64,000 bases of DNA from Bilabrum cf. latius (GCA_965178125.1 OZ237736.1:682001-746000), one strand, 5' to 3'; positions 311-63,728 are shown, counted from the stretch's first letter. Notes: generated by a model from the letters alone, not told the origin. Program-made: numbers and translations.

Positions 311-2103
311 ATGCGCAGTGTGGTTCGAAGGAGTATCAAAACGCTTTCAAGGTCACTTAGTGCGGGTGTTCCTGCTGCAGTTCCCAGTAGGACGTGTGCT
401 GGACTCGCATCGGCAGTATCCCCGGCTGCTGACGGCAGCCATGTGCACGTGATGAAGTTTTCTGGGTCTCAGCTTGACGGTGCTATTGCTCTAAAGTAGA
501 TTGCAGATTCAATCAGGGAGGCAGAGGCTGGAGATGATAAGTAAGAAGTGCTTGGTTCGTGTATCGTTCCTGGCCATCCAGGACGGATATTTAATGGAAG
601 CCCTGCTGTGGTTTTTACAATCTTTTGCCTCTACATTTTTGGCGAAAATAAATAAGCGGGACTTTAATTTCCTCATGCAGTAATCAAGCATGCATAGATT
701 TCCCGTTTCGCAGGTTGGTGGTAGTTCTATCCGCTCTGGCAGGCGTTACGAACTCCCTGTACAAGATTTTGCAAGATTTTGACGCCGGTGCAAGCGTGGA
801 ATCGCTGAAAGATGATATTAGTGCGCTATTGTCTCTGCATGCCGGGACAGCAACGGATCTTTTGGGCCCTCAAGCTTCCCGACAGGTCATCGAGAACATC
901 GAACTGGCCCTTGAGCATCACCTGCTGGGCAGATTGCGCTACGCCCGGGAGCGCGAGGGACCGTTGGTACCGTTAGACCGAGACATTATTTGCTCATTAG
1001 GAGAAAGATTCTCTGCCTACATTTTGACGGAATATTTGAGTGAGCACGGCCTGCAGGACCGTGCTGCGCTGGTGCCAGCCGAGCAAGTGATCGTGACCGA
1101 TGGGAAGCCGGGGGCTAGCATGCCCCTCATGGCGGAGACATAGAGCAAGGCAAGGGCGGTTCTAGCACCCATGCTGGCCCAGGGCACGGTTCCGATCGTC
1201 CCTGGATTCTACGGCGGCTCCATTTAGGACGGGGCAGCGACAACGCTTGGTCGCAAGGGCGGTGATCTGTCTGCTGCCATGCTGGGGTACGCTCTCGATG
1301 CGGAGGGGGTAGACTTGTATCACCTGGAGCAGGATCCGTCCAAGGCAACTTTTACGCAGGCGAACCACAGCTTCAGTGACCAGAGGGAGCACGGAGCAAG
1401 TGCTCCGGGGCGAGCAGGCGACCCTGCTCGCTCTGGAGCAGGTGCCTCAGAATGGCGCGCAGACCACAACGGCAGCCACTCAGACGTGGTCGAAAACCTC
1501 ACGTACGAAGCCGCCGAGGAGCTGTGTGCCCTGGGCCAGGACGCCGTGCACAGGGGCTCGGTGGGTCCTCTGCGTCGCAAGGGAATCCCCTTCACGGTGG
1601 CCTCGAGCCTGGGCGCAGAGGACGAAGACACCACCACCATCCAGTCGGAAGTGGATTTGTACGGGAACGAGGGAGCTGTGGGAGGGGAGGCCCCCGCCCA
1701 TGCCGCTGGTGGGGCGGGCCAGGGGTGGGCCGTGGAGGACCGTGTCTCCGCGGTGCATTCCATTGCAGTGCCTGAGTTTGAGCGGAGGTCGAATCGCCCC
1801 CTGGCCATGGACTGGGAGCAGCTGCCCCCCGAGCTGGAGAGGGACGCCTCCACGATCGTCCCCCTCGTGGGGTCATCCCTGATGCGGGACCAGAAGAGGC
1901 TCCGGAAGCTCACTTCGAGGGCGCTTCAGGAGGCCGGGGTGAAGTTTGCTGTTCCCTAGCGCGTGACCGGCTCCGAGCACAGCTTCTCCGTGGTGGTTCC
2001 CAAGGGGCAGGAAGGGAGCGCTGTGGCGGCGCTGCAGGACACATTCCTGAATGCCTCGGAGGACAGCTCGGGGACCGAGGGCGGAAGGAAGGGAAGGAGC
2101 TGA
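311..2103 (+). CDS. Host aspartate kinase-like protein (divergent), one intron 541-713, in-frame TAGs read as sense
   Basis: Exon 1 VMKFSGSQL joins in frame across a GTAAG...CGCAG intron to KLVVVLSALAGVTNSL; also SLGERFSA, PGFYG..TTLGRKGGDLSAA, LTYEAAEEL and an ACT-like C-terminus. In-frame TAG at 497, 1141, 1225, 1957; ends TGA 2101-2103. Confidence 0.75.
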
Positions 2104-2394
2104 AGGGCATGGGGACTTGGTGTAGCTGCTTGGGTGGGGGGGGTGGGTTGCGTGTGCCTGGCATGTTGAGATCTGATGCTATCCCACAAGCAAGCCGGCC
2201 TGGTCGAGGCGGGCATTACGATTAGAACTGTCTACGCACTTGGCCGTGCGGCACTGTAGCTGCATGTTCGCTGATGCATAAGCAGAATCTCCACTTTCAC
2301 TACGCGCGGCGCCGGTGCAAACCTTGAGGTTCCGTTTGCATCAGCCTCCCGCCATCAGCTGCTCTCAATCCACCTCGGAATCCGTCCTGTCTGC

Positions 2395-5277
2395 ATGCGC
2401 CCCAAGCGAGAGAGTATGCTTAAATCTCTGCGATTTGATAACAGGCAGGTCAGGCTGCTTCCTATTGACCCAGAAACTTCGAACTTCGTGCGAGATCCTG
2501 TGAAGGACTCCATCTTCTCTCTTGTAGAGCCCAAGCCCGTGCGTAATCCGCGCCCCGTTGTTTGGTCCAAGGATGCATTGGCTCTTTTGGGTCTAGCTGA
2601 CGAGGATTGGCTTGAATCTGAAGACGAGGAGACGGTGGCGTACCTGGTGGGAAACGCCGCAATCCCGGGCACGCGCCCTGCTGCCCATTGCTACTGCGGA
2701 TACCAGTTCGGAAGTTTTGCCGGCCAGCTGGGGGACGGCGCAACTATGTATCTCGGGGAGGTAGTCACTGAAAGTGGGGATCGATGGGAGCTGCAATTCA
2801 AGGGCGCAGGTCCGACCCCCTACTCGAGAAGAGCGGACGGCCGAAAGGTCCTCCGCTCCAGCCTGCGTGAATTTCTCTGCAGTGAGGCAATGGATGCACT
2901 TGGAATTCCAACCACGAGAGCTGGAAGCACCGTCACGTCCGATAGTCTCGTCGAACGCGACGTTTTTTACACGGGTGATGTGATCCATGAGAGGTGCACC
3001 GTAATCACCAGGATTGCCAAGAGCTTCTTACGGTTCGGATCGTTCGAGATATTCAAGGGACAGGATAGTAAGACTGGTCGCGCAGGACCCTCAGCGGGCA
3101 ACCAGGCGCTCTTGTTCCGCCTCGTGGACTATGTCTGCCGATTCCTGTATGCCGACATCCACGCAAAGTACATTCGTGGTGACTCCGGAGACTCCGCAAA
3201 TGGTGCAAAAGCCCTATCCAGTTCATCGTTGAGCGAGAAACATGGGGAATCCTCCAGCTCGAGTGGTGCCACCTCTCAGGCGCTGAAATCGTCCGATGCC
3301 GCCGGTGACGTCAAGCAGGCCAGCGCAGGCAGCAGCACGAAGACAACAGAAGCTGCTGCATGGAACCCGCAGGCAGAATGGGCCGAGGAAGAGGGACACG
3401 GAGACTATGCCCCCCCTGGCACGGAGCCCGGCGCGGCAAGAGTGCTGGAGGTCTACGAGGAGATTTGCAGGAGGACGGCGAGGCTCGTGGCCGGCTGGCA
3501 GCTGGTCGGGTGGTGCCACGGCGTGCTGAACACGGATAACATGAGCATTCTGGGCCTGACCATCGACTACGGTCCCTTCGGGTTCATGGATCGCTTCGAC
3601 CGGGAGTACATCTGCAATCACTCGGACGACACGGGGCGGTATGCCTTCGAGAACCAGCCGCCCATCTGCCGGTGGAACCTGGAGCAACTCGGAATCGCCT
3701 GGGAGCCGGCCATGCCGGGGGCCTACTGGAAGGGCAAGCTGGCCACGGGGTTCGACGAGGAGTTCGGCAGGGCGTACCGGGACGGGTCGGCTGCCAAGCT
3801 GGGCATGCTGGCCCTGTGCGGGGGCTCAGGGAACAAGACATCGGTGGCTCTGTATGAGAGCCTGCTGGACACCATGCAGGCCACGGGGGCGGACTTCACC
3901 AACACCTTCCAGGCCCTTGCAGCCATCCGGCTCAGCAAGCGGAGCGAGCTGCCTGCAGGGGTGGCCTCCCTGGCCCGAGGCAGCGGCTCAGCAGCGGGTA
4001 AAGTGGGGGGCGCTGGAGAGGGATCCAAGGCCGAAGAAGGGGAAGAAGACGGAAAGAAAAGTGACGCAGCAGGGGCTGGGGCTGGGGCTGGGCCGAGCAT
4101 GGGCTCGGAGCTAGCGTCGGCTGCGCTGCTCGGGTGCACTGCTGTCAGCGATGGATGGGAGCTGCTCCGGCGGCAGCTGTGCACTGCCAGCGAGCTGGCT
4201 GACGCAGCAAAGCCGAAGATGCCCAAGGAGCAGCTGCAGTTCTTCCTTATGCTGCTGAAGATGCAGGACCCGAGGGTGCTTGGGGCCCGATCCATGGTCA
4301 TCGCCGAAGCGAAGCGATGGCAGCAGTATGAGAAGCTGCAGGGGGTCTCAGAGGAGGCCAAGGCGGCGAGCGACAGGACACTGTGGGCCAAGTGGATCGC
4401 CAGGTACCTCGAGATCATGCACTCGCTCGCGGTTGCAACCGCGGGCGAGGTTGCAACCGGTTCGGGGGGCGGGGCCAAGGAGCCCGAGTGGGAGGCCCTG
4501 CGTGCGGCCAGGCAGGCTGAGATGGAGCGGGCCAACCCCAAGTACATCCTGAGGAACTACATCGCGCAGGCAGCGGTGCATTGCGCGGAAAGAGGCGATT
4601 TCTCCGAAGCCAGGAGGGTGCTGGCACGGGTGCGAGACCCGTTTGGTCTGAAGGACGGGCAGGAGGGGGCCGCACCTGTTGGGTTCGGCGCCGCCGCCGT
4701 TGAAGAGCAGAGGCGAGGCATGCTGGGTGGTGCTTCCTAGGGCGTGCTGGCTGGGACAGGGACAGGGGCGGAGAACAAATCGCATGCATTGAATGAAGGA
4801 GAGGCCGACGGTGCGCCTGCATCCTCCTCGGCGGAAGCAGGTAGCGGCAGTGGGGCCAGCGGCGAAGCGGAAGGAGCTGGCAGTGGCGGGAGCACAGCCA
4901 AGAGGGCGGCCCCAGGGTCGAAAGGGGGCGCGGGAGCATCGCCCGTGCGGCCTGGCGACAGCAAGCGGGCCCGAGTGGGAGAGGCGGGGAATAGCGGTGG
5001 CTTAGGGAACAAAGAGGCGGGGAACAAGGAGGTGTCCTCGGCGGCGTCCTGCCCCGCCGATGCGGACGGCGCGTCTGTCGGCGGCAGCATGCCGGCCAGC
5101 GGAGCAGGGGCAGGAACAGAAATAGGAGCCGGAACAGGAGCAGGGGTCGGCGCATCGTCCACTGAGGTGGACCTGTCAAAATGGAAGGTGCCGGTTGAGG
5201 GCGAGAGGGTTGCCCTCACATACGACTGCAGGCCACCAGGCTGGGCCTGCAAGCTCAAGGTGAGCTGCTCCAGCTAA
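2395..5277 (+). CDS. SELO: Host selenoprotein O / SelO-family AMPylase (Cys-type C-terminus)
   Basis: YCGYQFGSFAGQLGDG, ELQFKGAGPTPYSRRADGRKVLRSSLREFLCSEAM, HGVLNTDNMSILGLTIDYGPFGF, NPKYILRNY. Reading through TAG 4738-4740 reaches the family C-terminus PPGWACKLKVSCSS-TAA. Start uncertain (2395 or 2416). Confidence 0.9.
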
Positions 5278-5424
5278 ATCCATGGGAATCGGTGACCGTC
5301 GCGCAAATTCGTAGCACGTGCGAGAGTGTGGGTTTAATTAGTCCTTTTGAATAGCATTGCCAGTCGCTGCTAGCATAAACACTGCCCGGCGTTGATTGTA
5401 ATTTACGGATCAATACTTCAGTAA

Positions 5425-6342: not shown

Positions 6343-9300
6343 ATGGCAGGCTCTGGGCCACCCGGGTCCAATGGAATGCCAGGTGTGGTACCTGCCGTCG
6401 TGCAGGCTCTTGCCAAGCTGCAATCGCATGGTAAGTAGCCAAGTGCGCTTCGCGGGTGTACACAACTTTGCACATTGACGCGGCCAGTAGTTCCTTCACG
6501 GATATTTGATTTTTTGCTTGCATAGATCATGTATCACACGTAGTCGTGCAGCGATGTCTTCCGTCTTTGTTGTCTTTGCTTTTTCTACTGCCACGCAGAG
6601 GATGCGGATCGAGCTAGCGGGGAATAGTAGCTCAACCAAATGCGAGAAGCAGACTACGTGAGGTTGTAAAACATACAACTGAATGCACATCGCGAGCCTG
6701 GATGTCACGGAGTCTTCTGTGTGAGGACATGAGTGATCCAACAGCCGTCTACTTGAAAATTCGGGTACCGCAGAAAAGGCTGTTTCCCATGGTCTCTACC
6801 ATTGTCGCCGACGAACGGCAAGTGCCAGACGCAAGGATTGCAGGTTCTATCTGGCTCAAGAATGTGCTGGATCAAAAGGTATGATTCCGCTAGCTCGTGA
6901 CAATCAGAATCGACTGCAAACGGACGGCAGGGTATGCACGCCTCCTGAACATTCCCCCCCTATGCTTGCAGACGGATGCGGCACAGGCTGCAGTTGACGA
7001 CAAGTGGATGGCAATTGCAGCCCCTGTGCGCGATGCGATGAAGAAGCAGCTGATCGGAACTCTGCTCAACACGAACCCCCAGCTCCGCCGACTGGTAGCT
7101 CTTACAATTTCGGCTGTCGGTAGCATCGAGATCCCCCGCGACGAATGGAAAGATTTGCTCAAAGGTCTTGTTTCGAAAGTCTCTGACGAGAAGTCTGATT
7201 CGTTGACAAAGCAGGAGTGCCTGAACTGCCTTGGGTACACGTGCGAGAAGTTGGATCAGCGAGCTATGGACCAGGAAATGATCGATGGGATCCTGAAGTG
7301 CGTGATCCAGACACTGCAGAACAAGGCAAACGACCAAGCAACGGTATAGTGAGTTGATGGAGGAGCGGTGTCGCGCCGCTGCGCTGCGCACATTCACGGC
7401 CGAGCTCCTAGAGCAGCTGCTCGACGCCTCACTTCTTCTCGCGCCTCCCCCACAACTGCTCGCTAAATTGCCTTCTCGGATTCACACCGCAGCACTGCCA
7501 TGAAAACGCTCAACACAATGCTGGAGTTCGTAGAGGAGAATTTTACGGATGCTCGCAAGATGCAGAGAGACGCGATCGTGGGCACCGTGTGCGATGTGAC
7601 CGAGCATGAGAACGACGACGTGAAGATCGAGGCGTTCGAGTGCATTGCCAACATGGGAGCCATGTACTACGCCAACATGACGAGTTACATCGTTCGAATC
7701 TTTACAATCACCGACAAGGCAGTCGCAGATTCCCTCGCGGACAAGGTCGACGAGCGGGTGGGGCGCCTCGCTCTCGAATTCTGGGCGCAGGTGATGAACA
7801 CCGAAGCCAAAATCCGGGCCGAGGAAGTGGATGAAGAGTCCCGCGGCGTCACGGAGCGCGGCGTACCCAAGCTGCTTCCCCTCTTCTTCAAGTGCCTCAG
7901 CGCGAGAGACAAGGACGAGGAGGTCAGGGCACAGGCTGGAGAGAACATGGACTCTACCCTGGCCATCATGGGGGGCGCGTGCATGCGCCACCTGTGCCTC
8001 GCGCTGGGCCCGCAGTGCGTGAAGAGCGTCATGCCCGTGGCAGAGAAGCACTTCAACTCGCCTGACTGGAGGCTGAGGGATGCCGCTATCCTGTGCCTAG
8101 GCAACGTGTTCGAGGCCAACCTGGCAGAGCCCGCCGCCCTGGCCGACAAGATCCAGGCCGCGTTCACCGCGCTCATGCACAAGCTGCTCAAGGGAGAGCG
8201 CAGGGAGCAGGACCCCCGCGTGCGGAACACGACTGCGTGGTCTGTCGCGTTCGTGCTGCAGGGGTACTTGCCCATGATCAAGCCCGCTCAGTTCGAACCG
8301 ACCGTCAACTGCCTGCTGGACTGCCTCGCGGATCCCAGCCCTGACGTCGCCCAGTTCTCTTCGTATGCCTTCACGTGCCTTGCAAAGGCCAGCAGCGATC
8401 TCACCGAGAAGAACAGGCTCCCTGAGAACCCCTTCGACAAGTTCATACCGCAGGCCCTTCAGCGGCTCTTCACCGCCTACAACAGGGCGGATGGTCACCC
8501 TTCTCACCTCAAGCACGACGCCCACCTGGCCATGGAAGCTGTGGTGAAGAAGACCCCCGAAAAGCACACTTCAACGCTCGAGACCATGCTAGACAACGTG
8601 CTGAAGAACGTCGAGACTGTGGGAGGGAGGGTCGCCGCCTCCCAATAGGAAAAGGGCAACAAGGACGAGGTGCTGGCTCAGCTGCTGCAGCTCACTTCGT
8701 GCCTCTTCGAGCGCATGGGACCGGCTGCCAGCCGCTTCGCGGCTAGGGCAATCACAGACGCGTCGAGGGCGTACACGACTGGCTTGCCCCAGACGATTGA
8801 GGACTCGTTCGTGGTGATGCAGGCCGCACTCCCGCAGCTGCCAGAGGACAAGCAGGGGCAGGCGCTGGAGAGCATCTGGACCTGCCTGGGCGAGGTTCTC
8901 AACCAGAAATAGACCAATCCCGTGCTCTTCCAGCGGGCCGTGGTCAGCGTCACGTTTGTGTCGGAGCTGCTGTCCCACGTGTCGCCGGACAAGCTGGCAA
9001 TACTTTTGAGGTCACTGATCGCTGGGCTTCGCAACCCTGAGGTCACGCTGGAGAACAAGAGCCAGGTCCTGAGCAGCATCGCTGACGTGCTCATCTACAT
9101 GGGCACGGCCCCGCCCGTCGCCGCCGTTGACAATGTTTTCCAGGCGCTCGCGGAGTGCCACACGATTGCGATCGACGAAGAGGACGAGGACGAGGTGAGT
9201 GAGCTGGACGCCGTGTTCGAGGCCGTGGCCTACACGTACACGACCATCGCGCAGATTGCAGCAGACGAGGGCGGCGAGAAGTACCACGAGCTGATTGGTA

Positions 9301-9617
9301 GAAACATGAAGCCTGTGTCTGACTTCTTCGCCCGCATTGCGCTGCAGCAGAAGAACCGCGAGGCGCCAAACAGATCTGGAGAGCTGCTCAAGAACATCGC
9401 CGGCGCGATCGGGGACTTTGCCATGACGTTCGGCTTGGCCAGGGTCAGCAACTTTTTCCGGTTGCCGCTCGACTGGGTTCGCTTCGTCCTTGACAACGCA
9501 GATGCCTACGAGAAGGAGGACTGGCCCCGAGACTCGTCGAACCGTCCCATCCCTCCCATGGTGGAAGGCACCCCGAAGGAGACTGCGGCCGACTTTGCGC
9601 GACGGATGCTGCACTGA
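6343..9617 (+). CDS. KPNB1: Host importin beta-1 (karyopherin beta), about 4 introns in the 5' part
   Basis: GE(TAG)(TAG)LNQ at 6625-6630, IWLKNVL, WKDLL, CLGYTCE, LEFVEENF, ALEFWAQV, DWRLRDAAILCLG, VRNTTAWSV, GAIGDFA. Introns start at ~6431, 6658, 6879, 7349. Last exon 7493-9617 has TAG at 8646 and 8910 and ends TGA. Confidence 0.85.
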
Positions 9618-9821: not shown

Positions 9822-12800
9822 TTAAATCCTTGGACGTTTTCCGTCTGGCTGCATGGCAACTGCAGCACCGTCCCGGCCGCGCTTTCCTCCGACAGTTGCC
9901 TCCTGATCCGGGTCGTTGCGAGCTCCTTCGCCGCCGGTTGCGCCAGCCGAGTCTCCGGCACTACCACGACTGCCCGCTGACTGCGAGCCCGTAGCAGAGC
10001 CCCGTTGCTCCTGCGGCACGAAGGCCAGGCTGCTCAGTGCGGCCGCTGCCTCCGACTCTGACTGCTGGTCAGCCCCGGAAATAGGCCCTGTCGGCGTGGA
10101 CACGGATGTTGCGGAGTGTGCCGCGAACGCACTGGACGCACCTGCTTGTGCCCAAGCGACGCTCTGTCCCCATGGGTGCGGATAGGCCTGCCCTAGCGGC
10201 GTTTGACCTTGGTAGGCCTACTGAAAGTGGTTATAGTACTGGTACACTGAGGGTGAGAACGGCAGCGTTGGCATGGCTTGCCCGTACGCTTGGCCGGCCT
10301 GCACAGAGCCCCCGTTGAAAGGCCCACTGGCACCCCCCTGGAAGCCTACAGAAGCAGAAAGCCCCATACCGTAGGGAAGTGGCACCCCGTAAGGCAAGCC
10401 GGCGCCGTTCGGATACAGTGGCACGCCAGACGGTCGGCCAGCGCTTGGCCGACCCTTTCGCTGCACCGGCACCGGCACCAGCACCATCTCTGTGTAGGTT
10501 TCTTCTTCGTCGTCAGTCGAGGCCTCCTTAAGTGCGCTTCCGCTGACCCCACCCTAATTAAACATCGCGCTCACCCCTGGAAACGTGCCTTGCCCAGCCG
10601 AGAGCGGTAACTGAGATGAGGTGACTGCGATGCTGCCTGCGCTCGACTCGATCCCTGCTGTCGCGCTCCCTGGGTGCGCGGGTGAGCTGATGAGGGTGCT
10701 CTCGACTACCTCGACCTGGCCGATGTGCGAGGAAATAGCGCCTTGCTAGGTGCTCGAGCTCGAGCTCGTGGTTGTGGAGGGGGCAGTCTCTTGCCCAGCG
10801 TCAGCGGTGCCAGAGTCGCCCGAGGAGGAAGAGGGGCCACCTTCGCCGACACTGCCTGGAGTTGTGAGTCCTGAGGCCTGGGAGTCTTCCAGACTGCTGG
10901 TGGACACAGATGAGGTGGAGCGGTTGGGCAGGCCGATCTTTGCCAAGGAACTCGCAGGCAGCCCGGTCGTTGACGAGCTAGCTGCCCCAACTAAGGCGGT
11001 GCTCGACGAGGCACTATTTAGTGGCGCTTGCGCCGGGAATTTGCTGCTGGCTGCTGCCTTTTCACCGAATGTTATGCTGGCTTGCACTAGTTCCGGGGCG
11101 TCTTCTTGGGAGTCTGGGCTGCCTCGCCGTGCAAGCGACCCCGCGTGGTCTACACCTGCGCCCGCCTCCGCAGATGCTTCTTCTTCGGTCAGCTGAGGCA
11201 TGGATACCACGGCGTTCGACTGGCTATCACCTGCCCCCCCCTGCTTCTGATTGTGATGCCCAGGGGCAGTACTGACCTGTACATGACCGGATGACCAAGT
11301 CCCAGGCATGCTTGGAGGCAGTTGTTGGCTGCGGCTGGCACTTGATCTGGCAGAGTCCGTGCGATTTCCAGTCAGCGGCATTGGTGAACCTGAGCTTTCC
11401 GCACGGACAAGGCTCGCTGTCCCGTCCAAGCTAGCTGCTCCATCCACGCTTGCCGAACCAAAAGCGCTGTCTCTGCCCATCGATTGAAATGCATCGGGCC
11501 GAGAGGAAGGGGTATCTCGTGAAGGGCTAGAGCTAGCCGTTTGCTGGCTGGTCACCTCGCTCAGAACCATGAGAGCGCTATTAGGACCGTTGAAGTCTGC
11601 CTGCTGCCTCCGCTGCGCGTGCTGGGGGGGCACATCCCCGCCGATACTTCCAGCTCTCCACGCGTCGCTGCTAGGCTGGCCTCCAGCACCCGAACCTGCA
11701 CCGGCCGCCGCTGCTGCCGCCAGGGCGATAGAACTACTTGAAGCACTGGGTTCGGAGCCGAAAGCGGACAAGGCATGCCTCCCACCGAACATCCCAAGAG
11801 AAGCTGGAGCGGTGCCTATGGTGCTGCCCTTGCTTGCCCATGCAGACGCACCCGAGCTGCTACTTGAGGCGGCGGATGAGAATGTCAACTGGCTGCCTGG
11901 TGCTGGTGCATTGCTATGGGACAGGCTGAGGCCTGCGCCAATCCATTCACGCGGCGCATCCCATGGCCTGGCCCCCTGTTGCTGCAGCTGCGAGTGCGCC
12001 CCAGATGAGGCAAGCAAGGCCATCCTACGGGCAGCCTGCCTGCCCCCTTGTCCCTGGCCTGCCGCCGCTGGAAGCATGGAACTGGGACCTCCTCGGCGCT
12101 GCGGACCTGCATTGCTGCTCGTGGTACCATACCGCCCGCCCACTGCTTCGGACCCGCCCTCATCTTCATCTTCGGCCAGGTCCATCGAGCTGGGCTGGAG
12201 GTCACCCCGGTGGCCAAGGCCGGCGAGGAGGGCGGTGGCGGCCGAGACGTCCTAGGGGTCGGTCCCATGGGCTCCGGTTGTACTGCTGCTAGAGGAATCC
12301 TCATTTCTGTGCAGACTGGGGTTCGGGCGGGGGCGCGGGCGTGGTTGGCCCAGCCTGGGCCTCGCGGTGCTGCTGTTAGTGATGGGTACAGTGGACCCGT
12401 CCATCACGGAGGCAGGCATGCGGAGGTTCGCGACGTGCTTGATAAGGTAAGGAGCAGCAGCCCCTAGCATGAACTCAAGCCGCTTCACGATGTTGGGCTT
12501 TGACCGCTCGCTCGCAAGGGGCGCGTCGCTGTTGCTCACCGGATCTTCCAGCAAAATCGGGGGCATGCCCGCTGGGTCGCCTGCCAAGATCGCTTCGCCT
12601 AGCCACTTGCAAAATTGGTTCTAAGTACTTCCAAGCTGACTTGTGACGTACTTGGAAATCGGAGGGAACCACGGTTTGCCCTTTGACTTGCTGCGAATGA
12701 GGCTTTTCTAAGCCTGCTCCACTGCCTTCTTGACACAGGCCGTCTCATCCTCAATCTAGGCTGGAGTAGGACCTCCTCGAGGCTTTTGGGCCTATTCGAC

Positions 12801-45788: not shown

Positions 45789-45892
45789 ATGAACGAGCAG
45801 AATTTTGTTATCAATCCATCACTCGATCCGAAACCCTGCCAAGTACGACTGCCAATCAGCGAATCAGTGTGGCAGCACGGCGCCAAAGCCAA

Positions 45893-46315: not shown

Positions 46316-46404
46316 TCTTGCTGATTAATTTGTGCGGTAAACGGCGGTGCGGGATGAGCGAACTCACAGAGAACCTTCCCCAGATCGGCGCTCCCCTCCC
46401 GCGT

Positions 46405-48859: not shown

Positions 48860-48902
<43 letters not shown>

Positions 48903-52515: not shown

Positions 52516-52727
52516 CGTTTGTCCCGCTTGGGTGCAACAGTGTATTGTGTGGGTGGCAGAAAAAAAGATGGCAAAACACAGCCGACCCGGATTCCGGATT
52601 CCAGACCATCGGTCCCCTATACGGAATCTTTGAGCCAGAGAGATAACGGCCACCACTAGACCACACCTTTCAATGTATGCTTGCCTTCTTCATATCGGCC
52701 ACGGCGCATCTGATCCAAGTCGCTGTC

Positions 52728-53807
52728 TCAACAAACCCGGCGCTTCTTCCCCGCACCAGCTTCGTGGCCTGCAACACTAGCAATGCGCTCTGGGTTTATG
52801 CCACGGTCCAAGCTACACGGTGATACAGGCCGTTTTGACCCCAAGCGCTCACTGCTAGTGCTGGCACCAGCATCGCCCGCCTCACCTGAAGCCCCCACAC
52901 TGCCAGAGCTGGCACCAGCATCGCCCGCCTCACCTGAAGCCCCCACACTGCCAGAGCTGGCACCACCAGCTAGCATACTTCTGCTACTCGATCCCAACCC
53001 TGCGACCAATGGAGTAACTGGCAGCCCTGGCAACGATCTACAAGACTCGCTGAGGGATACGTCACAAATGTCATGCCCCTCCCCGCGATCCTCCCGACTC
53101 CAGTAGCTTCTCGTCGTCAGCCCAGACGCACCTGAAGCACCTGAACCGCTCGATCCGTTTGAACCGCTAGATTCCGATCGATGCATCGGGTCGTGCATTT
53201 GGATCTGCATGTCACCAGTATTATCATGTCTTTGCTGGTCAAGCTCACTAAACCCGTCGGAGGTTTCAAGTTGCCCGCGTGACGAGGACGAATCCTCACT
53301 GGCAGCAGCCTCTCCTTGTCCTTCACGGTGCCTTTGAAGGTATTCGTCTGGAGGAGCCTACTGCAGAATATCAGGCATATTCTCTAGTACGCCTGCAACT
53401 ACGACTTCATTCAGGTACTTCGTGTACACATTCTTCGCCTTGCCCTGCGAGAAACTTGGCAGCCGAACTGTGTCCAGTAGCTGGGAACAAATCTCCTGGA
53501 ACCAAGTTCGCCTTCCTGCCGTTGATCGATTGACGGATTTAGACAGTTGTGCCAGAAGCTCCCTAAGCTCCTCAGTTCTTTCCTGCTTGCCAGTGGCTGC
53601 TTTTCGTGTCGATGCAGCAAGGTGGGCAATCGCTCGAAGCCTGTTGATGTAATGAAGACCTTTGCTGCCTCTCCACCTCTTCCCTCCTTTGACTGGAGAA
53701 TCTAGTCTACCTACTGGAGCATCATTCTGGATCCGCTCCAGCCATGCACTCAAGTAGTCGTTGATATCTTGGTGCCTCTGGGATTCGCTCGGTTCCGGCT
53801 TGCTCAT
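52728..53807 (-). CDS. Host tandem-family protein, paralogue E (short)
   Basis: YLSAWLERI..KGLHYINRLRAIAHLA..TWFQEIC..YTKYLNEVVVAGVLENMPDIL; joins ORF 52728 via TAG. Confidence 0.7.
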
Positions 53808-54148
53808 TGCGCTCGCAGGAACTTTCTCCTTAGGACTGCCTGCAGTGGAAGATTTGGATTGTCCAGCAGGGCATATACACATAGATGGAAATGTTGCAGC
53901 CCGATCGTCTCGTCTTGAGGCGAAGTTCGTATACCAAAACCAGGTTGAAGATCACACGAATTGAATGTGCAATTGCCTGGGCCTTTAGGCCTAGTTCTGC
54001 TTTGTTCTATCTGTCAAGCACTTTCTTGGCAATCTTCTAAGATCTTCTTACCTGAAAGCTTGGCATTGCAGATCTATCGGATGGATTCCATCCGCTCCGC
54101 TTATTCTAAAAGTAACGCGCAGTTTTTGTACGTGGGCGGCCACGGGTT

Positions 54149-57100
54149 TCAAACTTCGACCCTGCGCCTCTTTTCCGGACTTGCTCCATGGGCTTCAACA
54201 CTAGCCTCTCGATCTAGTTCTTTGCCACCGCCGGAGCCGTGCGGTGATGCAGGCCGCTTTGAGCCCAAGCGCGCACTGCCAGTGCTGGCACCATCATCGC
54301 CCGCCACACCAGAAGCACCCGCACTGCCAGTGCTGGCACCATCATCGCCCGCCACACCAGAAGCACCCGCACTGCCAGAGCTGGCACCATCATCGCCCGC
54401 CACACCAGAAGCGCCCGCACTGCCAGAGCTGGCACCATCATCGCCCGCCACACCAGAAGCGCCCGCACTGCCAGAGCTGGCACCATCATCGCCCGCCACA
54501 CCAGAAGCACCCGCACTGCCAGAGCTGGCACCATCATCGCCCGCCACACCAGAAGCACCCGCACTGCCAGAGCTGGCACCATCATCGCCCGCCACACCAG
54601 AAGCACCCGCACTGCCAGAGCTGGCACCATCATCGCCCGCCACACCAGAAGCGCCCGCACTGCCAGAGCTGGCACCATCATCGCCCGCCACACCAGAAGC
54701 ACCCGCACTGCCAGAGCTGGCACCATCATCGCCCGCCACACCAGAAGCACCCGCACTGCCAGAGCTGGCACCATCATCGCCCGCCACACCAGAAGCACCC
54801 GCACTACCAGAGCTGGTTCTATCTCGTGCTGGTCGGGTGGCGGCAGGTGGCTGTCCACAGCGCGAGCCAGACCCATGCGATTCCAGCTCCAAAGCTCGTG
54901 CGGACGGTACAGATTGTATGGTCCGCGACGAGTCCCATGAGCCAGGCGGAAACTGAGGATGCTGACTCTGCCCGGACATTGTGTTCTTGCCGACGATATC
55001 AAGCGGATTATCGGCAAGACTGCACCCCGAGACTCCGCTCCCACTGGATTCATGTGACTCGCTAGATGAAGACCGGCCCATCTGTTCATGTACGATCCCT
55101 GTGTCTCCTGTAGACCCGTCCAACGCGTGAGTAGGTCGAACTGCATCATCCACCTCAGTGATGCTGTTTGTACCTGCTGCGTGGCCTCGAGTCTGGTACT
55201 ATGCCACAGGGCGCTCACTCACCCCGCCGTGGTCGCTGCCACTTCTGCTGCCGTTGCCGGCATGACCAACTGCCACACCGTGCCCTGGCCTGTGTGACTC
55301 GCTCGAATCCGCTCGATCAATCGAGCGTGCCGTTCCAGAACTCGATCGCTGGATCTGAGTATCGCCATGGTTGCCTCGGCCTGGCGACTGTTCCTCACTG
55401 AGTCCGTCGGAATCCTGTTCGTGCGTAACATTTGAGCTAACAGGCACAGTTGCAATAAGTTGGGTCGATGATTGAGACTAGAGTCCAGCAAGCTCGGGGA
55501 GTGGGGAAGGCTGACTGCCTCTACGGTACTGCTGTCTCGCTACATCCTGGCGCAACAGTGTGTTGTACTCCAGGCTCGGTCCAGTGTAGGCACTGGTGCC
55601 TCGCGTGCTAGGAGCTGTATGGGCCGCGTCTGTACTTCTACCGAGTCCTCGTCCCTGGGCGGCCAACACTTCTACTGCAACCGCAGTGCCGGTGCTTGGA
55701 ACCATAGATTCATCGCGGGGTGCGCCTCGTGTTGCACTGTCGTCATCAGCGCTACCATGGCTCTAGCCACTTCTCACGCTGTACTGGTCATTATCGAAAG
55801 CTGAGGGGGAGCGATCCGCGCTGGCCTCGCCGTATGCACTGCTTGCCTGATCTATGCTTGCAGGTGTGCGTGTTACGACGTTCCAATGACCGCTGCTATC
55901 CAATGCAGTGGGCAGTTCCATGCTGCTCGAGGCTGATGCAGCCCCAGTCTTGATTGAAGGGCTACGTTGACCACCGCGTGCGCCGACCGCATGCGAACCA
56001 GCATATCTGCTCGGGTCTGGCAGGACGCCTGGGGTAGCTGACCCACTGCCGCCAGATACAAGAGCTTCACCCCCATGACCGCGTGAATTCTGTCCATACG
56101 CAAGAACACCAAGGCAAGTGGAGGTGCTGCGACTCGCTGTGCTGCTCGCAGCTGCAAATTGCCCGGAACGCTGATGCATTGAACCTATAAGCGGCACATG
56201 GCCCATGTTGGGAACAAGCAAAGAATCGCCCCTGCTGCCGTCACTGATAGTGTCGCTGTCTCTCAAGTTGCCATGCTGGATGCCGGAGTTGCGTGATCGT
56301 ACGGCTGCTCCATGCGCTGTTGGGGCAGCTGGGCGAGAGCCATAGGACCTGGCGACTACAAGTAGTACCGCACTCGATTGCGATCCCGCTGCCGGCTGGC
56401 GATGCACAGGAGACAAAGATCCCTCGCCAGTCTGCATCTAAGCCTCGGACTACACAATGGAATTTTGGGCGGCAGGACCTTTGGTCGCGCTCGTGTGCGA
56501 CTCAGGGCGTTGCCGTTCCGGCTCGGTAGAGCGTGCCCTTCCCGCCCCCCCTTTTGCTGGTATGGGCTTCGGACCGTGCTGTCGATGCCGACGAGTGGTC
56601 TTTGATGCACCAGAGGCGGACTCAATGGCCCCAGAAGAGGCGCTCTCTGCACCGGAAAGCAAGCTTGCTGCCCAATCATCCTCCGGCTGCTATCCGCCTC
56701 CTGCATCTCCACGTTGCTTGTGCAGTTCTTCAAGGCACCCTCGTGCGTATTCGTCAGGGGGGCGACGGTGTAGAATGACTGGCATGTTTTGTAGTTCACC
56801 TGCAAGCACCACTTCGTTCAAGTATGTCGTGTACGAATTCTTTGCTGCTCCCTGCGAGAAGCTGGGTGGCCGAATCGACTTCACCAGTCGAGCACATACC
56901 TCTTGGAACCAAGTTTGCCTGCCCACCTTTGATCTATTTACGGATTTCGATAGTTTTGCCAGGAGCGCCTTTAGCTCCGTAATTCTTCTTTGCTTATTGG
57001 ATTCATTGCAGCCTCCTCGCGTGGATGCAGCCAGGTGGGCAATCGCTCGAAGCCTGTTGATGTAGTGGAGACCTTTAGTGCCCGTTGGCCTCTTCCCTCC

Positions 57101-57220
57101 TTTGACTGGCGGGTGTAATATACCTTCTGAAGCATCTATGCGGATTTCCTCCAACCACGCACTCAAGAAGTGGTTGATTTCCACTTGCCTGTTTGATGCA
57201 CCCTGTTCTGGTGTGCTCAT
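54149..57220 (-). CDS. Host tandem-family protein, paralogue F (~1023 aa, with 16-aa repeats)
   Basis: N-terminal domain very close to paralogue E; fragments 54149, 55199, 55478, 55763, 56450, 56690 are co-frame. Confidence 0.7.
54273..54816. repeat. 48-bp coding minisatellite, about 11.3 copies
   Basis: Unit GCACTGCCAGAGCTGGCACCATCATCGCCCGCCACACCAGAAGCACCC; encodes SSGSAGASGVAGDDGA on the minus strand. Confidence 0.95.
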
Positions 57221-57611
57221 TGCGGGGAAGAACAATGCTCCTGAGAACTATCTGCGGTAGCAAGATAAGGGTTTTAGTTCTGATTGACATTATGGGTGGA
57301 AGGGTTGTTGCCGAGCGGCCCAAACTCGAGATAGATCGGGTGGCAATTCTGTGCGTTCAGTCGGGCTTATTCACCAAGAGGACCGCCAGCAATCAGGTCA
57401 TTAATCGCCGTAATACAAACCTCACGCGCTATCAGTGAATAATCAAATACTAGTGGAAATTATAAGAGCGTCAAGTGTAGGTTCACTTCCTCCCAAAAGT
57501 AGCTACGATCTCGATCTACGAACGAACGAACGAACGAATCTTGATTTATATCTACAACGCGCACGAACCAACTCGGGGCGCCGCGCGACGGAACCAGAAT
57601 CCATTTGTTCG

Positions 57612-60600
57612 TCATTCACCTTGCGCTAGAGACTCCCACAGTTCGTCCGTCGTTTCCTTCAGCACCTTGGCATGGTAGGCCGCCTAGATGGCGCTCATCT
57701 TGGCCGAATCAGAGAGCCTCTGCAGCGGGTTCGATGGCCGCCCACCAGAACCAGAATCACCACTGGCAGTGCCTGCACCGGGAGAGCCCCCACTGGCAGC
57801 AGGCTCGTCCAAATCGTTCTGTACCGCAATCTCCGAAAGAACGCCGCGAAAAGCGTCAGGAGCCGCGTCCCTTGCGCACGCGTTCAGCGCCCGCCGGAGT
57901 GCAAGCGCTACACTCCTGCGATGCTAAAGCAGAGCAGGCGGCGCCCCGTCCACTCGCAGGCCCACGGTCCTGTGCTTGCATTCCTCTTCCAGGTCCGCAT
58001 CCAGCAGACCCGTGATAGTGCTCTCGATGCTCTCGCGCAGCTCTGATGGCACGGTCCTGCCGATGCCATCCTCCTCTTCACCCCCCTCACCCCCCCGGTC
58101 CTGCTCTGGTTTTCGAGCAAACCCTCCACCTGCTCCTTTGAGCGTAACCGCCGCCGTACCATCCAGGCTGTTAGTAGCTGCAATCGGCAATTTGGGCCCT
58201 CGATCGGACCCAGGAGGCTACTTCGCGGCATCGCGCGTTGCACCACCATGCGGTGCACCCACCCGACCTTCCCGGGCAGCATCGACATCGCCGGGCGATG
58301 TCGGCATGTCTACCGTGGAACTGCTTGGGGCGGGCCCATTGATTGAAACTCGCTACATCCCTGTGTCATCATCTGACCACTCGTCGTCATAGCTGTCAGA
58401 CTCGCTGAGATCCTTGCCTGCACGACTGGAAATGAGGGCATCGCTGTGGCTCGTCCCTGGATGTTTGGCCGCACCATCGACTGACGGTCTGTGCTTCGGG
58501 TCATCAGCACCTAGCCCTTTGCCAGTGGTGCGTGTCTATTTCCCAACTAGTCTTTGCACCATGGCACGCCCTGCATCGATGGTGGTGGAGGCCGAGCTGC
58601 TCACTGTCGACGGGTCGACAGAAGTGGCGCTGCCGTGTGTGCCAGCCAAATTGCTCTTCCCTGGGTCAACGCTTGCCGTACTCGGGAAATTGACAGCATC
58701 TGACGGCGCTGCACCCACATACCCGCCGGAGAACACCGCAGGCTAGAAGCCAGCCGCGCCTCGGCGCGCGGATGGGCTTTGTATGGGAGACGGCGTGCGC
58801 GCGAAGGCCTCCTCGTCCAAGTCTGTGCCACCCCCATCGTCATCGCTACCACGCTGTCGTGTGTGAGACCTACCACCATCCCCGATGCCTACACGCTGCC
58901 ACGTGCCAACCGCGCCATCCTCGCTATCGCTAGTGACGCTGGCTGCACTGGCCTGCTGCCGCGGCTAGCTGCCACCGCTGCGCCTGCCCGCCAGATGCTC
59001 TGGTATTGGGGGTGGCTCCTGGGTACCAAGTGACGGAGGCTCCAGCTGCTTGCCAGATGGCTCCCTGCTGGCAGCCTTGCTGTCGGAGCGCTCACCTTCT
59101 GCAGACAGAGACATGGGGGTTAGCCGGCCGGGAGGTGACATGGATCCAGACCCTCGTCTACGGCGGAGCTAGATCTCGGCAGAACGACGAGTTCTGCCTG
59201 CCCTGCCTCCATGCCTTTCAGCGCGTGGTGCAGTATCTCCAGCTGGTGATGACCCAATGGCGTGCTTAGAATCAAGTCGTGACCCGCGACCACGCACTTG
59301 ACGCCTGCCTTCGCGGCTGCGAGTTGACTGATCGTCGGGTGAGAAGCCAGTGCTGCCGCGGCTCCTGTTGGAACTGTGTCCGGTGCTGAGTCCTGATGAC
59401 TCGAGCGCCATGGTATCGCTTGCCTCCGCTCTGGCGGCCTTGCGCACCGACTGGGGCCTTGGGTGCCTGTATGGGTCGCGACCAGCAAATGGAGAGGGCG
59501 GCCCCTCCTCGTCATCGTAGCCTGTTTGGGCTGCTACAGCCAACCCACCAAGCGGCTGTAGCTACGCAGCGGACTGTGACTGCCCGATTCCGCCTGCTCT
59601 ACGCTTGACACCCTTGGCTGCACCGTGAAGGCTCGTCGCGCTCAATCGATGTTGCTGCCTCGACGGGCTGCCCGACGATCTTCGCTGGGGGCTGCCGTGC
59701 TGCATATAGCCCGACGAACCAATGCCACGCCTCCCTCCAAGTGTTCCCATCGGCACGCCTCGTTGATTCAACGGGCCGCGGCCCAGGTCACTGTCGGTGC
59801 TTTTGCCGCTGCGATGCCGTACGGGTATACCGCTCCGAGTACGGGAGCGAGTGGAAGCGGCGGCAGTGGCCGCCCGCCTGTTCGGCTGCTGCACAGTCAT
59901 CTCATCCATGTCTTCCTGGGTGACAGCAAGCGTCCCCAACAAATGCGAGTGGCTGTGCCTGACGGTGATCGTGTCAGGACCGGTGCGAGAACGACCGTGG
60001 CTGGTCTTGGGCACGGTGGGACTCCTCCCTCCACGCACTGGAGCCAGGCCACCCTATCCTGGAGACAATCCCGACCGGATAGATGAGGATATGGACTCTA
60101 TCGAATCGCGTTGCCGGTGTTGTGCGGCCTGCGGCGAAGACTGCCCGCGTGCTTGTGCACCAAAGCCTCCTGACGCGCGGTCATGTTCTGGCGAAGGCTC
60201 GAACCATGCGCCCTGCGTTGGCACCACCTTCTTTTCACTTCTTCGCTTGCCCCTGCTGCTGCCATTAGAGCGCCCCGGTCGAAACCAGAACGAGTCTTGA
60301 CCGTCGGTGGCACCACTGGCGCGGCCACTCGACGACATACCTCCGTCCGGCGACGACTCGCTCGGCAAGGTCGGGCTACCGAAAGGGTCGGACTCTCGCA
60401 TCTAGGCGCCATAGCCATGAGGCCTCTCGCCCTGCAGGCCATCACCATCACCTCTCGATGCATGGGACCGAATTGTGGGAACTTCTTCGAGCGGTGGTAG
60501 CCTCCCACCACCGCCCGGCCCTTCGTACCCCGACAGGCTACCGCCGCGCATGCCCCCACTCCCGCCATCGTATTGCTGCGCGGCGCCGCCTCCACCCTCC

Positions 60601-63600
60601 CTGACATCCCATTGCGTCTACACCATGGTATGGTCTCCGGACGGACCGCTGGAGCCATTCGGCTCTAGGATAGTCATTCCTATTTCTTCCTCGCCGAAAG
60701 AGTCCTTGCCTTCCCCCTCGCCGTCTATTGTGCCTGAAATCACGCTCACGCCAAGTCGGCTATCGACGTCTGCGCCGGTGATGGGTGCCTGCCCTGAGCG
60801 GGGGTCTGCTTCAAGCGAATCAGGGGAACCTGGGCGGATCTCGCTGTCGTCCTCGACGGAAAATCCGGATGAGTCTGCCACTGATGACGACGCTGTCGTG
60901 TTCGAAGCCTTGGAGCTCCGCTTCTTCTTCTTCCTCTTTGCTCTCTTTCGAGTCCTAGCGGACTTGCCATCGATGCCTTTGCCTGATGCACCTCTGCTGG
61001 GTCTCTTGGTGCTCTTTCTACCCGTTGATCTACCGCTCGAAGCCGTACGCGCACGACTGTCTGACCTGTGTGAAGGCTGCTTCCTCGTCCGATTGCCCTT
61101 CCCCGCTGTGCGCGACCTAGTCCGACTGCCAGTGCTGTTGGAAGTGGACGGCTTGGACGCTGCAGACGAGGAGCCTGCTCTCTCTTGAGACTCTCCCGGG
61201 TGACGACCACCGTCGTTTGCAACATTCCCGTTCCGACCCGATGCTTGCAATTTGCTTCCTGCGCCAGCACTCGCTGGCACGTGGCTATGGGCAGCCCTTC
61301 GCATCGCTTGGATGGAGTCCTCCAACGGCCCATCCTGCTGGCCATCCCCACCCCAACGCGACGGCGACGGAGACCCAGAGTCGGAGATACTCGCCGTGGG
61401 ATTGTTCCCCGTGGCGTTGCTGCGACCAAAGCGTCGGGCTGCTCCTGTTGCTGTTGCGGCTCTGCGTGGACGACTGGGCAGAGCCTCGGCGCGCCTCAAA
61501 GGGGAGTCTCCCGGTCTCCCGGATTGACCCACCACACCAAGGGGACCCATCTCTAAGCTCTCATGCGATCCCTTCACCTGAAGAGGGCTTCGCATGCCGG
61601 TGTCTACCTGGTCCTGGTCCGGGCCGACTGTATCACTGCCCCGTTGAGAGCCACCTTCAGAGCTGCTTGTACCCCGACCTCTGCGACCGCCCCGAATTGG
61701 AGCCAAGCCAGTGCCACCCACACCGAGACCACTGCTCCCTGCATCGTCTGCCCCACGATGGCCGCTGGGATCATCTGCACAGTTGCTCTCCATGGAGCGC
61801 CTGACTCTGTGCGGCGAGGGCCGGGCATGTCGGCCGCCCCGTGGTGGTCCGCGCATGGCCCCTGCCAGCGCTGTCTGTGCCCTGGGCTATTCTGGACTGG
61901 CAATCCCACCGCGACTGCGGCGCGATGCAGCGCCCGCGGGGTCTAGCATCACGTCATGAGCGGACAGGCCCCTCGTTAACGGCTACAGGCCAGCAAAGCC
62001 CTCGGCGTCCCCTCCCCCGCCGCTCGCAGTGTCGCTGCCAGACCTGTCGGGGGACCCATCCCGGCTTGAGTCTGACGACAAGCGGTGTCTCCTACCGCCA
62101 GACCTGCTGCTTCCTCTGCGCATACCACGAGGCGAACGATTTGGGGAGCCTTCTGAGCTTTGCACTCTAGGGGCTGGGTCGTGCTTTCGCCACGCACCGC
62201 GAGGCTGGCTGGGCTTTGAGCTCCCGCGGTGCGATGAATGCACGCCATCGCCTGGTACCCCTCGAGGCGACGTAGAGGATGATCTTTCTGCAGATGCGTG
62301 GCCCTGTGCCCCCTCTGCACCTCCACCTTGGCCCTCACCGAATAGGGTAAGCGTGGTAGTTGGCGCCAGCACCATGTCGGCCTAGTGAGCGGAGGTGGGC
62401 CTGGATCCCCCATGCACTCCATCATCACCGATACCGCCGCCCATGACCTCCTCCTCCTGCTGATCATCATTTGCATCATCATCATCGTCCTTGCCCTCGC
62501 CTGACCCAGCCGCCACACCTGACGGAGCCACCCGGCGCTTCTGCCTGACGGGCGTTGCTTTGCCTCCCCTCCCTGAAGGCGGAACACCCAGTTTCCTACC
62601 TCCATGGCCCCCCACATCATCGCCGCCAGTGCCCGCGCCCGCGCCCATGCCCTTGCCCGCGGCAGTGCCAGGGCCCATGGCAGCCGACCGCGCTGCTCCC
62701 TTGATGGCGGCCCGGCGAGCCGCCGCCTCCAGCGCCTCTGCAGGCAGCTCGAGACCCAGCTCCGCCGCCCACGCGGCCACAAAGGGCTTGCTGAGCACGG
62801 TCATCACGGAAGGCCTCCTCCTCGAGTCCCTGGTCAGCAGCTCGTCCACAAGGCCCCGCAGCTGGGGCGAATACTGCGTCCTCGAGATCGGTGGGTACGT
62901 CCCTTGCAGGATCTTGAGGATGAGCGCCCCTTGATTGCGAGCGTCGAAAGGGTGTCGCAGCGTGAGTAGCTCGTATAGGATGCAGCCCAGTGCCCAGCAG
63001 TCCGACTTTTGGTTGTAGGGTTTCTCGGAGAGCAGCTCAGGGGATAGGTAGAATGGGCTGCCGGTGAGCGTCCGGCTGAACCGCGTCTGCGTGGACAGCA
63101 GCTTGGCGACGCCCAAGTCTCCCACTCGCACCCGAATGCTGCGTGCCACGGATCCGTCTGGGTCGTCAAGCAGGTCTGGCGGTCCGCTGGTGCCGCCACT
63201 AGATTTTGCTGCATCGGCTTCTAAAGAAGTGCCAGCGACTAAAAACACGTTGGCGGCCTTCAAATCTCGGTGCATAATTCTATGCGAATGAAGAAACGCC
63301 AAGCCGCAGCATATTTGGATGAATAGGGAGCGCACCATCGTCTCTGGCAAGAGCTATCCACGGCGGGCCTTCAGGGCGCGGTGTAGATCCCCATCGCACA
63401 GCTCCATCACGATGCAAAGAGCTTCATCGTCCACAAACGAGTCGAAATATTGCACCACGAACTCGGAATCCATCCTGGCAAGAATTTGTGCTTCCCTGGC
63501 TGCTTGAGCTTGCTCTTGGTCCGAGAGGTCGCTGATATCGACCTGCTTCATGGCATATAGCCGCCCAGTCTCAAGCCTCTCCACGCAGTGGACCGATCCA

Positions 63601-63728
63601 AATGAGCCAGAGCCTAACTTCTTAAGGAGCTTGAAATCTGATAGTTTGCTCATCTCTTGCGGTTGCGACTCTCCCCTTGCACCACCGGTTGCAGGCGATG
63701 TGCTAGCGGCGTCACCCGCTCCAGACAT
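57612..63728 (-). CDS. Host NIMA-related (NEK) Ser/Thr kinase with very long disordered C-terminus (~2000 aa)
   Basis: LGSGSFGSV, YAMKQV, EAQILA, IVMELCDGDL, RRG(TAG)LLPE, HRDLKAANVFL, GDLGVAK, GSPFYLSPE, YNQKSDCWALGC; downstream fragments are all co-frame to TGA 57612 (not every gap checked for stops). Confidence 0.8.

Follow-up and report, generated by a model that had tools for sequence, protein, structure and literature searches.

A nuclear code in which UAG alone has become a codon for glutamine (Gln, Q) has been described in few eukaryotes. Iotanema spirale (Fornicata) reads UAG as Gln and retains UAA and UGA as stops (PMC5304391), and the phyllopharyngean ciliates Hartmannula sinica and Trochilia petrani also read UAG as Gln, with UAA as the preferred stop (PMC11687900). 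The first-pass annotation of the DNA studied in this work was right in calling such a code rare and incomplete in naming I. spirale alone as its reported case. Viruses have also been linked to variant nuclear codes. The endogenous polinton-like viruses of Streblomastix strix use the code of their host, with TAA and TAG as Gln, a sign of long association (PMC10120064); a survey of 2019 detected an ochre-suppressor tRNA in some virophages and proposed that their hosts are recoded (PMC6905037); and a 2026 catalogue contains giant-virus genomes from metagenomes for which a code with one reassigned stop codon gives the best reading, every isolated giant virus being from a standard-code host (PMC13524828). 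We analysed a stretch of 64,000 nucleotides (nt) of chromosomal DNA (Bilabrum cf. latius, GCA_965178125.1 OZ237736.1:682001-746000), called here the window, in which host genes lie on both sides of an integrated, mavirus-like virophage. TAG is a sense codon in both the host and the integrated virus, and very probably means Gln for host and virophage alike.

The window had a guanine plus cytosine (GC) content of 55-63%, save for an island of 36-44% at about 18.5-41.6 kb, and open reading frames (ORFs) of host type with Pfam matches flanked the island on both sides (X was written at every TAG for the Pfam searches). The 27 ORFs contained 153 in-frame TAG, 70 in host genes and 83 in the island, and no in-frame TAA or TGA; 16 of them ended with TAA and 11 with TGA, which bears out the earlier proposal that TAG is sense, and TAA and TGA are stops, in host and virus alike. 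Because the ORFs were delimited by TAA and TGA, a procedure in which a terminal TAG would go unseen, the fair comparison is that with the off-frames. In the island, TAA occurred 0 times in frame and 149 and 213 times in the two off-frames, and TGA 0 times in frame and 103 and 243 times out of it, whereas TAG was found 83 times in frame and 89 and 65 times in the off-frames. TAG is thus equally common in and out of frame, and TAA and TGA are excluded from the frame. Island ORFs of at least 300 amino acids increased from 2 to 8 when TAG was taken as sense, compared with 3 for TAA and 2 for TGA. With refined exon limits, TAG made up 65 of the 9,687 codons of the host genes and 83 of the 5,817 codons of the island, corresponding to 0.7% and 1.4%, and it accounted for about 14-15% of the Gln codons in host genes and about 27% in the island. 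The individual sites listed beforehand were found as described: the TAGTAG pair at 6625-6630 in the importin gene, the TAG at 24705 in the integrase and that at 25840, as well as nine TAG in the major capsid protein (MCP).

Pfam matches ran across TAG in the SIR2, Pkinase, AA_kinase and TPR_IMB1 families of the host genes and in the DNA_methylase, Tet_JBP, rve, MCP_V20_C and DUF5906 families of the viral ones. The host SelO gene had a single in-frame TAG, at 4738, and its C-x-x end motif lies 178 codons downstream; a [C/U]-x-x terminus was reported for 111 of 143 SelO representatives (PMC3281104), and the ribosome must therefore read through this TAG in order to reach the family motif. Homology was used to check two TAA ends and no TGA end: TAA follows the C-x-x motif in SelO, and in the integrase it falls in the alignment column where the homologues P0001 and P0006 end. 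The end of the primase-helicase also agreed with its homologues, and the genes of the capsid block began 23-31 nt past the preceding TAA or TGA.

These ends also bear on a dual TAG, which would be Gln within genes but, in certain contexts, terminate some of them. Codons with such a context-dependent double meaning occur in some ciliates, and several observations point that way: a terminal TAG would escape notice in ORFs bounded by TAA and TGA, which weighs against an exclusively sense TAG; the TAG at 21130 in the methyltransferase ORF resembles a gene boundary, with an ATG in the same frame, coding for the M of 'YMSYL', 3 nt further on; and long low-complexity tails follow some TAG, for instance in SelO. 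Nevertheless, all 27 ORFs reached TAA or TGA, the SelO end motif requires read-through of TAG, the ends of the integrase and the primase coincided with those of their homologues and nowhere in the window is a TAG stop needed, so we consider a dual TAG unlikely.

The contigs of three studies (X3, X5 and X6) on the TAG-bearing host genes showed 0 differing letters. Those of X6 skipped six intervals, five of the GT..AG type on the plus strand and one CT..AC corresponding to a minus strand gene; the contigs of X3 and X5, which are of the DNA type, ran through all of these intervals. X6 was taken to be spliced RNA because these splice-type joints are absent from X3 and X5, an assignment that is a guess from the joints of contigs, not raw reads, the automatic label being 'RNA? 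(probably DNA)'. The importin exon of 60 nt that holds TAGTAG was flanked by two of the X6 GT..AG joints. No T>C change was found anywhere in X6, so editing of UAG to CAG was not seen, and UAG is present in the mature host mRNA. A systematic C-to-T artefact is excluded, because the island had 153 in-frame CAA and 0 TAA. Both editing and this artefact had been raised as possible pitfalls by the first-pass annotation, and neither was borne out. The parts of the element past about 18.4 kb were without cover in X6 and X8, which counts as no finding; X8 is a relative in which about 8% of the bases differ, and it was not used, none of the 41 listed of its 1,067 differences being at TAG.

An orthologue fragment of the host protein kinase from another data set (P0175, 93% identical) stopped exactly before one of the TAG of the window, and this TAG is therefore conserved; it was the single protein recovered when fragments orthologous to the tail of the kinase were sought. 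The possibility that TAG is never translated, whether because of sequencing or assembly errors, editing of the RNA to CAG or decay into pseudogenes, is suggested by the frequency of false stops in viruses integrated in protist assemblies (PMC10120064). It is hardly conceivable here, given that the in-frame codon was always TAG and never TAA or TGA, that the contigs of three studies were identical, that the spliced RNA-type contigs kept TAG with no T>C change and that the kinase fragment of the relative stopped at the same TAG.

The higher density of TAG in the island than in host genes would fit a recoding of the virus only, by a suppressor tRNA of its own in a host with the standard code, and phages using code 15 reportedly infect standard-code hosts. 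This was found to be extremely improbable: intron-bearing host genes held TAG inside conserved domains and in the spliced RNA contigs, and the element is without a tRNA gene, ARAGORN having detected none in the 64-kb window and hence none in the element.

Besides Gln, a sense TAG could stand for glutamate (Glu, E) or lysine (Lys, K), either in the host alone or in host and virus; on the balance of the results that follow, we hold this to be very unlikely. In an alignment of the integrase with the best 16 of 24 homologues from the protein collection, Q made up 42 of the 153 residues at the 10 TAG columns and 64 of 232 at the CAA and CAG columns, and at most 7.2% at the other columns. At least 70% Q was reached by two of the 10 TAG columns (residues 56 and 164), two of the 15 true Q columns and none of the 368 others; the result was unchanged without P0001, and without both P0001 and P0002 it included 1 of 367 other columns. 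E and K represented 7.8% and 15.7% at the TAG columns, compared with 34% and 46% at the true E and K columns, and, against Glu or Lys, no E or K column of the integrase had 70% Q or more, whereas two TAG columns did. At the TAG of the integrase motif L-TAG-SDNG, which had been put forward as a site where Gln is expected, 11 of the 16 homologues had R, 4 had Q, the two closest among them, and 1 had K. The proposal that TAG falls in Gln-rich coils received no support, as the composition of the neighbouring residues showed no Gln enrichment.

A public contig of 12,257 bp (P0025) encodes an identical primase-helicase, translated with Q at all 12 TAG, so the virophage has been read in a TAG=Gln code by at least one pipeline for gene calling. 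The earlier statement that the virus is hidden from standard gene calling is consequently true only in part. By the same token P0001, the closest integrase homologue, may have been translated with TAG as Q, which weakens the support that it lends to Gln. We examined the DNA of the relatives because translations in the collection may already carry Q read from TAG: in 56 integrase relatives of IMG/VR, the 62 Q at the TAG positions of the window were all encoded by CAA (31) or CAG (31), and the nine closest loci had Q at positions 56 and 164 in 9/9.

In an independent test, each candidate residue was placed at TAG and the resulting Pfam scores were compared, which is in effect a likelihood over the profile columns. 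For rve, Q was the best of the 8 residues tested (Q 70.0 bits, R 68.5, K 68.0, W 67.7, L 67.1, Y 66.9, S 66.5 and E 65.6). For MCP_V20_C, with 14 residues tested and C, F, I, M, P and V left out, Q scored 56.1 bits, followed by N (52.4), K and T (50.4), S (50.3), H (50.2), E (49.4), D (49.3), R (49.2), A (48.8), Y (47.8), W (47.3), L (46.3) and G (44.1). Summed over five viral families, the scores were 462.7 bits for Q, 456.0 for K, 454.7 for R and 450.2 for E, which places Q 12.5 bits over E and 6.7 over K; over nine families Q had 970.7 bits, K 964.3, E 961.2 and R 959.8, so that Q led K by 6.4 bits and E by 9.5. Q was opposite three of the nine TAG sites in the alignment of the MCP with that of mavirus (PDB 6g45), and came first with 149 homologues of the primase.

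Two results from the viral genes weigh against Gln. K was only 0.3 bits behind Q in the primase, and when the viral genes apart from the integrase were compared with distant relatives in IMG/VR, Q was found at 3 of 73 residues aligned to TAG, compared with 17% at true Q sites, in a count that leaves out L036 (a low-complexity match) and in which L008 and L009 are near-duplicates. The viral TAG outside the integrase sit at variable positions. The sequence comparisons taken together show Gln to be the meaning of TAG in the viral genes.

The host genes gave a less favourable picture, and the following points all count against Gln. The scores summed over SIR2, AA_kinase, TPR_IMB1 and Pkinase were 511.0 bits for E, 508.3 for K and 508.0 for Q, i.e. 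E was 3.0 bits above Q and K was level with it. In a calibration in which real CAG codons were read as E and real GAG codons as Q, the difference E minus Q per codon, with the in-domain codons counted by eye, was +0.2 to +0.43 bits for TAG, about -0.39 for CAG and +0.56 for GAG, which locates the TAG columns between those of true Gln and true Glu. PDB alignments showed Y and E at the TAG sites of the sirtuin, and K/P/A and E/K/N/E at those of the aspartokinase, and the window paralogues of a host family of unknown type had mixed residues opposite TAG. The host genes of the window alone thus do not separate Q, E and K. The remaining residues had lower sums (H 506.8, S 505.9, R 505.1, Y 501.0, L 498.4 and W 496.7), and hydrophobic or aromatic residues, including leucine, a reading known from a rhizarian (PMC5304391), are disfavoured at the host TAG.

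The comparison that proved decisive for the host was a scan of metagenome contigs, in which the TAG-free part of SelO served as the query. The SelO of one contig with 57% GC (L057) was 71% identical to that of the window and contained TAG three times in frame, TAA and TGA being absent. Each of these TAG aligned to CAG or CAA of the window, for which the chance is 1.5e-5, and two of them were at Gln positions found throughout the SelO family, in GSFAGQLGDG and WELQFKGAG; among standard-coded loci, Q was present in 18/18 at position 134 and in 14/18 at position 111. TAA or TAG was found at these two positions in three AT-richer contigs (L065, L066 and L067), whose organisms apparently read both codons as Gln, which confirms the meaning of the columns. 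On this alignment, TAG serves as a codon for conserved Gln in a close relative of the host, and TAG at near-invariant Gln positions of SelO argues against Glu or Lys, as does the fact that host and virus have one translation apparatus in common. The GC-rich contig L063 goes against Gln in part, since of its two in-frame SelO TAG one was opposite Gln and one opposite Met, and it had Arg opposite the only SelO TAG of the window. The integrase columns, the CAA and CAG of the relatives, the viral Pfam sums and the SelO of L057 make Gln, the residue proposed at the outset, the best-supported meaning of TAG, and we infer the same meaning for every host TAG.

In all likelihood, then, this cell follows the pattern of NCBI table 15: in its cytoplasm UAG is translated as Gln, and termination is left to UAA and UGA. 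To judge from other organisms with a code of this kind, a tRNA-Gln with the anticodon CUA would decode UAG, and the release factor eRF1, whose gene is not in the window, would be blind to it. The virophage, of 28.1 kb, would have integrated between two host genes by means of its rve integrase, an event that would have left the inverted ends of 301 nt and the 5-bp target duplication, and it would have evolved for a long time in cells in which UAG is Gln. Because its genes are written in that code (83 TAG in 5,817 codons), its proteins would be made only where UAG means Gln; with its ends intact and 83 TAG in frame, the element agrees with the first-pass view that the virophage is adapted to a recoded host.

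The replication of virophages requires a giant virus, so an intact virophage in a UAG=Gln cell would imply that giant viruses infect such cells, and we infer that a giant-virus helper using the same code exists. It is conceivable, though somewhat doubtful, that the window comes from an unrecognised lineage of GC-rich, intron-bearing protists with UAG alone as Gln and at least one environmental relative, that this lineage is the natural host of TAG=Gln giant viruses and that the locus is the first cell-anchored trace of all three partners. The recoded giant viruses of metagenomes could now be looked for, and brought into culture, in hosts of the kind that the window identifies, and the question of what they infect becomes testable. 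Standard gene calling cuts both the host and the viral genes of the window into pieces, and surveys of endogenous viruses often take such stops for decay or assembly error (PMC10120064).

Table 1. Coordinates of the host and virophage features of the window, counted from its first nucleotide.
Feature	Position	Strand	Remarks
AA_kinase ORF, Pfam search (X at TAG)	652-2103		
SelO ORF, Pfam search (X at TAG)	2275-5277		
Importin-beta TPR/HEAT ORF, Pfam search (X at TAG)	7467-9617		
Aspartokinase gene, host	299-2103	+	Exons to 540 and 714-2103, intron 541-713; TAG at 497, 1141, 1225, 1957; ends TGA
SelO gene, host	2395-5277	+	Pfam SelO E=3e-93; ends ...KVSCSS then TAA
Importin-beta gene, host	6343-9617 (start approximate)	+	Pfam TPR_IMB1 and HEAT; exon limits 6429, 6598-6657, 6774-6876, 6970-7348, 7493-9617; TAG at 6625, 6628, 8646, 8910 (spliced reading); ends TGA
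Sirtuin ORF, host	13950-15989	+	Pfam SIR2; TAG at 14169, 14472, 15414, 15771; ends TAA
Protein kinase with long disordered tail, host	57612-63956	-	Pfam Pkinase 2-263/263, E=2e-57; ends TGA
Six paralogous host genes, no known family	9822-13115, 16206-18203, 46985-49723, 50164-52689, 52728-53951, 54149-57289	all -	
Mavirus-like virophage element	18568-46697		28,130 bp; recognised by inverted ends, target duplication, capsid genes and GC
Target-site duplication, left copy	18563-18567		ACTCA, 5 bp, read from the flanks
Left terminal inverted repeat	18568-18868		301 nt, 99.7% complementary to 46398-46697
C5 DNA methyltransferase, TET/JBP dioxygenase and FkbM methyltransferase ORF	20596-23805	+	1,069 codons; TAG at 21130, 21631, 22648; ends TAA
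rve integrase	23916-25127	-	Pfam rve and rve_3; 10 in-frame TAG; ends TAA
Putative packaging ATPase	27713-28735	+	5 TAG; ends TGA
Putative cysteine protease	29273-29815	+	2 TAG; ends TGA
Penton (minor capsid) protein	29844-30752	+	2 TAG; ends TAA
Major capsid protein (MCP)	30784-32511	+	9 TAG; ends TAA
D5-like primase-helicase	38282-40873	+	Pfam DUF5906; 12 TAG; ends TAA
Right terminal inverted repeat	46398-46697		
Target-site duplication, right copy	46698-46702		ACTCA, 5 bp, read from the flanks

The host genes are listed in Table 1. The aspartokinase matched Pfam AA_kinase (E=7e-16) as well as PDB aspartokinases, and its GT..AG joint 540/714 was seen in a spliced contig with 0 differing letters. 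An RNA-type contig covered SelO from 2375 to 5381, also with 0 differing letters, and four GT..AG joints of the importin-beta gene were present in X6. The SIR2 match of the sirtuin took in the whole profile (1-180 of 180, E=3e-52) and spanned two TAG, and PDB SIRT3 was matched with E=1e-63. The kinase had 17 in-frame TAG, one of them within the kinase domain at 63354. Introns in the host genes were of the GT..AG type and 82-210 nt long.

The six paralogous host genes had a common N-terminal block with KPWFPP-like and KWLGE..AG-like motifs, followed by long low-complexity tails, and the virophage sits within their array. In one of them, a 48-nt unit repeated about 11 times at 54267-54816 gives a 16-residue tandem repeat (SSGSAGASGVAGDDGA). 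At 18273-18366, a stretch of about 94 nt located 200 nt outside the element, the contigs of all four runs broke with loose ends, and the depth of X3 rose about 15-fold in the bin containing it; this is probably a high-copy repeat.

The virophage element is a complete integration and not a fragment, because it has inverted ends of 301 nt and ACTCA on both flanks. The outer 65 nt of the left repeat (18568-18632) are a perfect palindrome. GC content was 39.5% in the core (18869-41600), 55% in an inner segment (41601-46397) and 59% in the host flanks. The gene names given by the first-pass annotation were mostly confirmed, by Pfam for the aspartokinase, SelO, importin-beta, sirtuin, integrase, MCP and primase and by PDB 6g41 for the penton; the kinase was recovered as Pkinase, and the names of the ATPase and the protease did not find such support. 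The ATPase, a candidate for the FtsK/HerA-type packaging enzyme, scored 22.8 bits with Pfam ATPase_2, under the cut-off of 33.2, and had tblastn matches to ORFs of virophage-like IMG/VR contigs, among them L022 (E=6e-29). The putative cysteine protease, with a putative catalytic motif, had no match in Pfam or PDB, and its tblastn relatives adjoin penton or MCP genes in four IMG/VR contigs (L022, L008, L009 and L004).

The penton matched the minor capsid protein of mavirus (PDB 6g41) over residues 28-297 with E=2.3e-15. The MCP matched Pfam MCP_V20_C, the Sputnik V20 family, with E=1.3e-12 (X at TAG), the mavirus MCP (PDB 6g45) over residues 57-558 with E=3.7e-32 and Sputnik V20 with E=9e-9. 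Peptide patterns revealed no close relative of the MCP or the primase in IMG/VR, and the protein collection contained no word-sharing relative of the MCP; at E<=0.001 the primase-helicase had 13,244 homologues. Most homologues of the rve integrase carried a chromodomain, and no protein-primed polymerase was seen in the element. The methyltransferase/TET/FkbM ORF matched Pfam DNA_methylase (E=2e-59), Tet_JBP (E=1e-24) and Methyltransf_21 (E=2e-7), with two of its three TAG inside domains. A 33-nt motif ending in ATG precedes both its methyltransferase part (21094-21126) and its TET part (22174-22206); the two parts may be separate genes or have internal starts.

Other sequences of the element were noted. 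A plus strand ORF at 20025-20648, composed of YKNG..HRDGD.PA repeat units with a weak MORN-like match, had zero TAG, unlike its neighbours. The primase-helicase gene lies between two direct copies of a repeat of about 335 nt (37877-38211 and 40875-41209), which are 88% alike, and short AT-rich inverted repeats, each forming a hairpin, were found between genes (23862-23913 with 36627-36678 and 37150-37196) and may be regulatory or terminator-like. The inner segment, 4.8 kb with a host-like GC content, had TAG-bearing ORFs with no Pfam matches; the C-terminal stretch of the ORF at 41710-42963 presumably resembles box II of tyrosine recombinases, and the segment may be a nested mobile element. 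The depth of X3 over 18677-20000 was about 3-4 times that of the host flank, and the X3 genome may contain several copies or relatives of the element.

With regard to the known systems, the window and Iotanema spirale have in common the reassignment of UAG alone, to Gln, with UAA still a stop. The Iotanema case is a transcriptome, whereas here the code is seen in chromosomal DNA of about 59% GC, with introns and an integrated virus in the same code. Hartmannula and Trochilia have the code table found in the window. Both are ciliates, and their macronuclear DNA is AT-rich and in gene-sized pieces, in contrast to the 64-kb multi-gene stretch of 55-63% GC studied here. As in Streblomastix, an integrated DNA virus uses the non-standard nuclear code of its host; the Streblomastix viruses, however, are polinton-like and have both TAA and TAG as Gln (table 6), while the window has TAG alone and capsid proteins of the mavirus type. 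The element resembles mavirus and the endogenous elements of Cafeteria burkhardae in its MCP, penton, rve integrase, inverted ends, short target duplication and a GC content lower than that of the host. Mavirus uses the standard code; what further distinguishes the element is its D5-like primase-helicase, together with the methyltransferase/TET/FkbM ORF and the GC-rich inner segment of 4.8 kb. For the recoded giant viruses of metagenomes the host is not known, whereas here the cell's own genes show the code, in a window without giant-virus sequence. No virophage in a UAG-only code was found in the literature searched, and supplementary files may hold such cases. Two reports on protist genomes or on viruses endogenous to protists mention no change of code. 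The type of code is known, from three protist lineages, and so is a virus sharing the variant code of its host; what is new, as far as our searches reach, is the pairing of a cell's own genes with an intact virophage in a UAG-only code.

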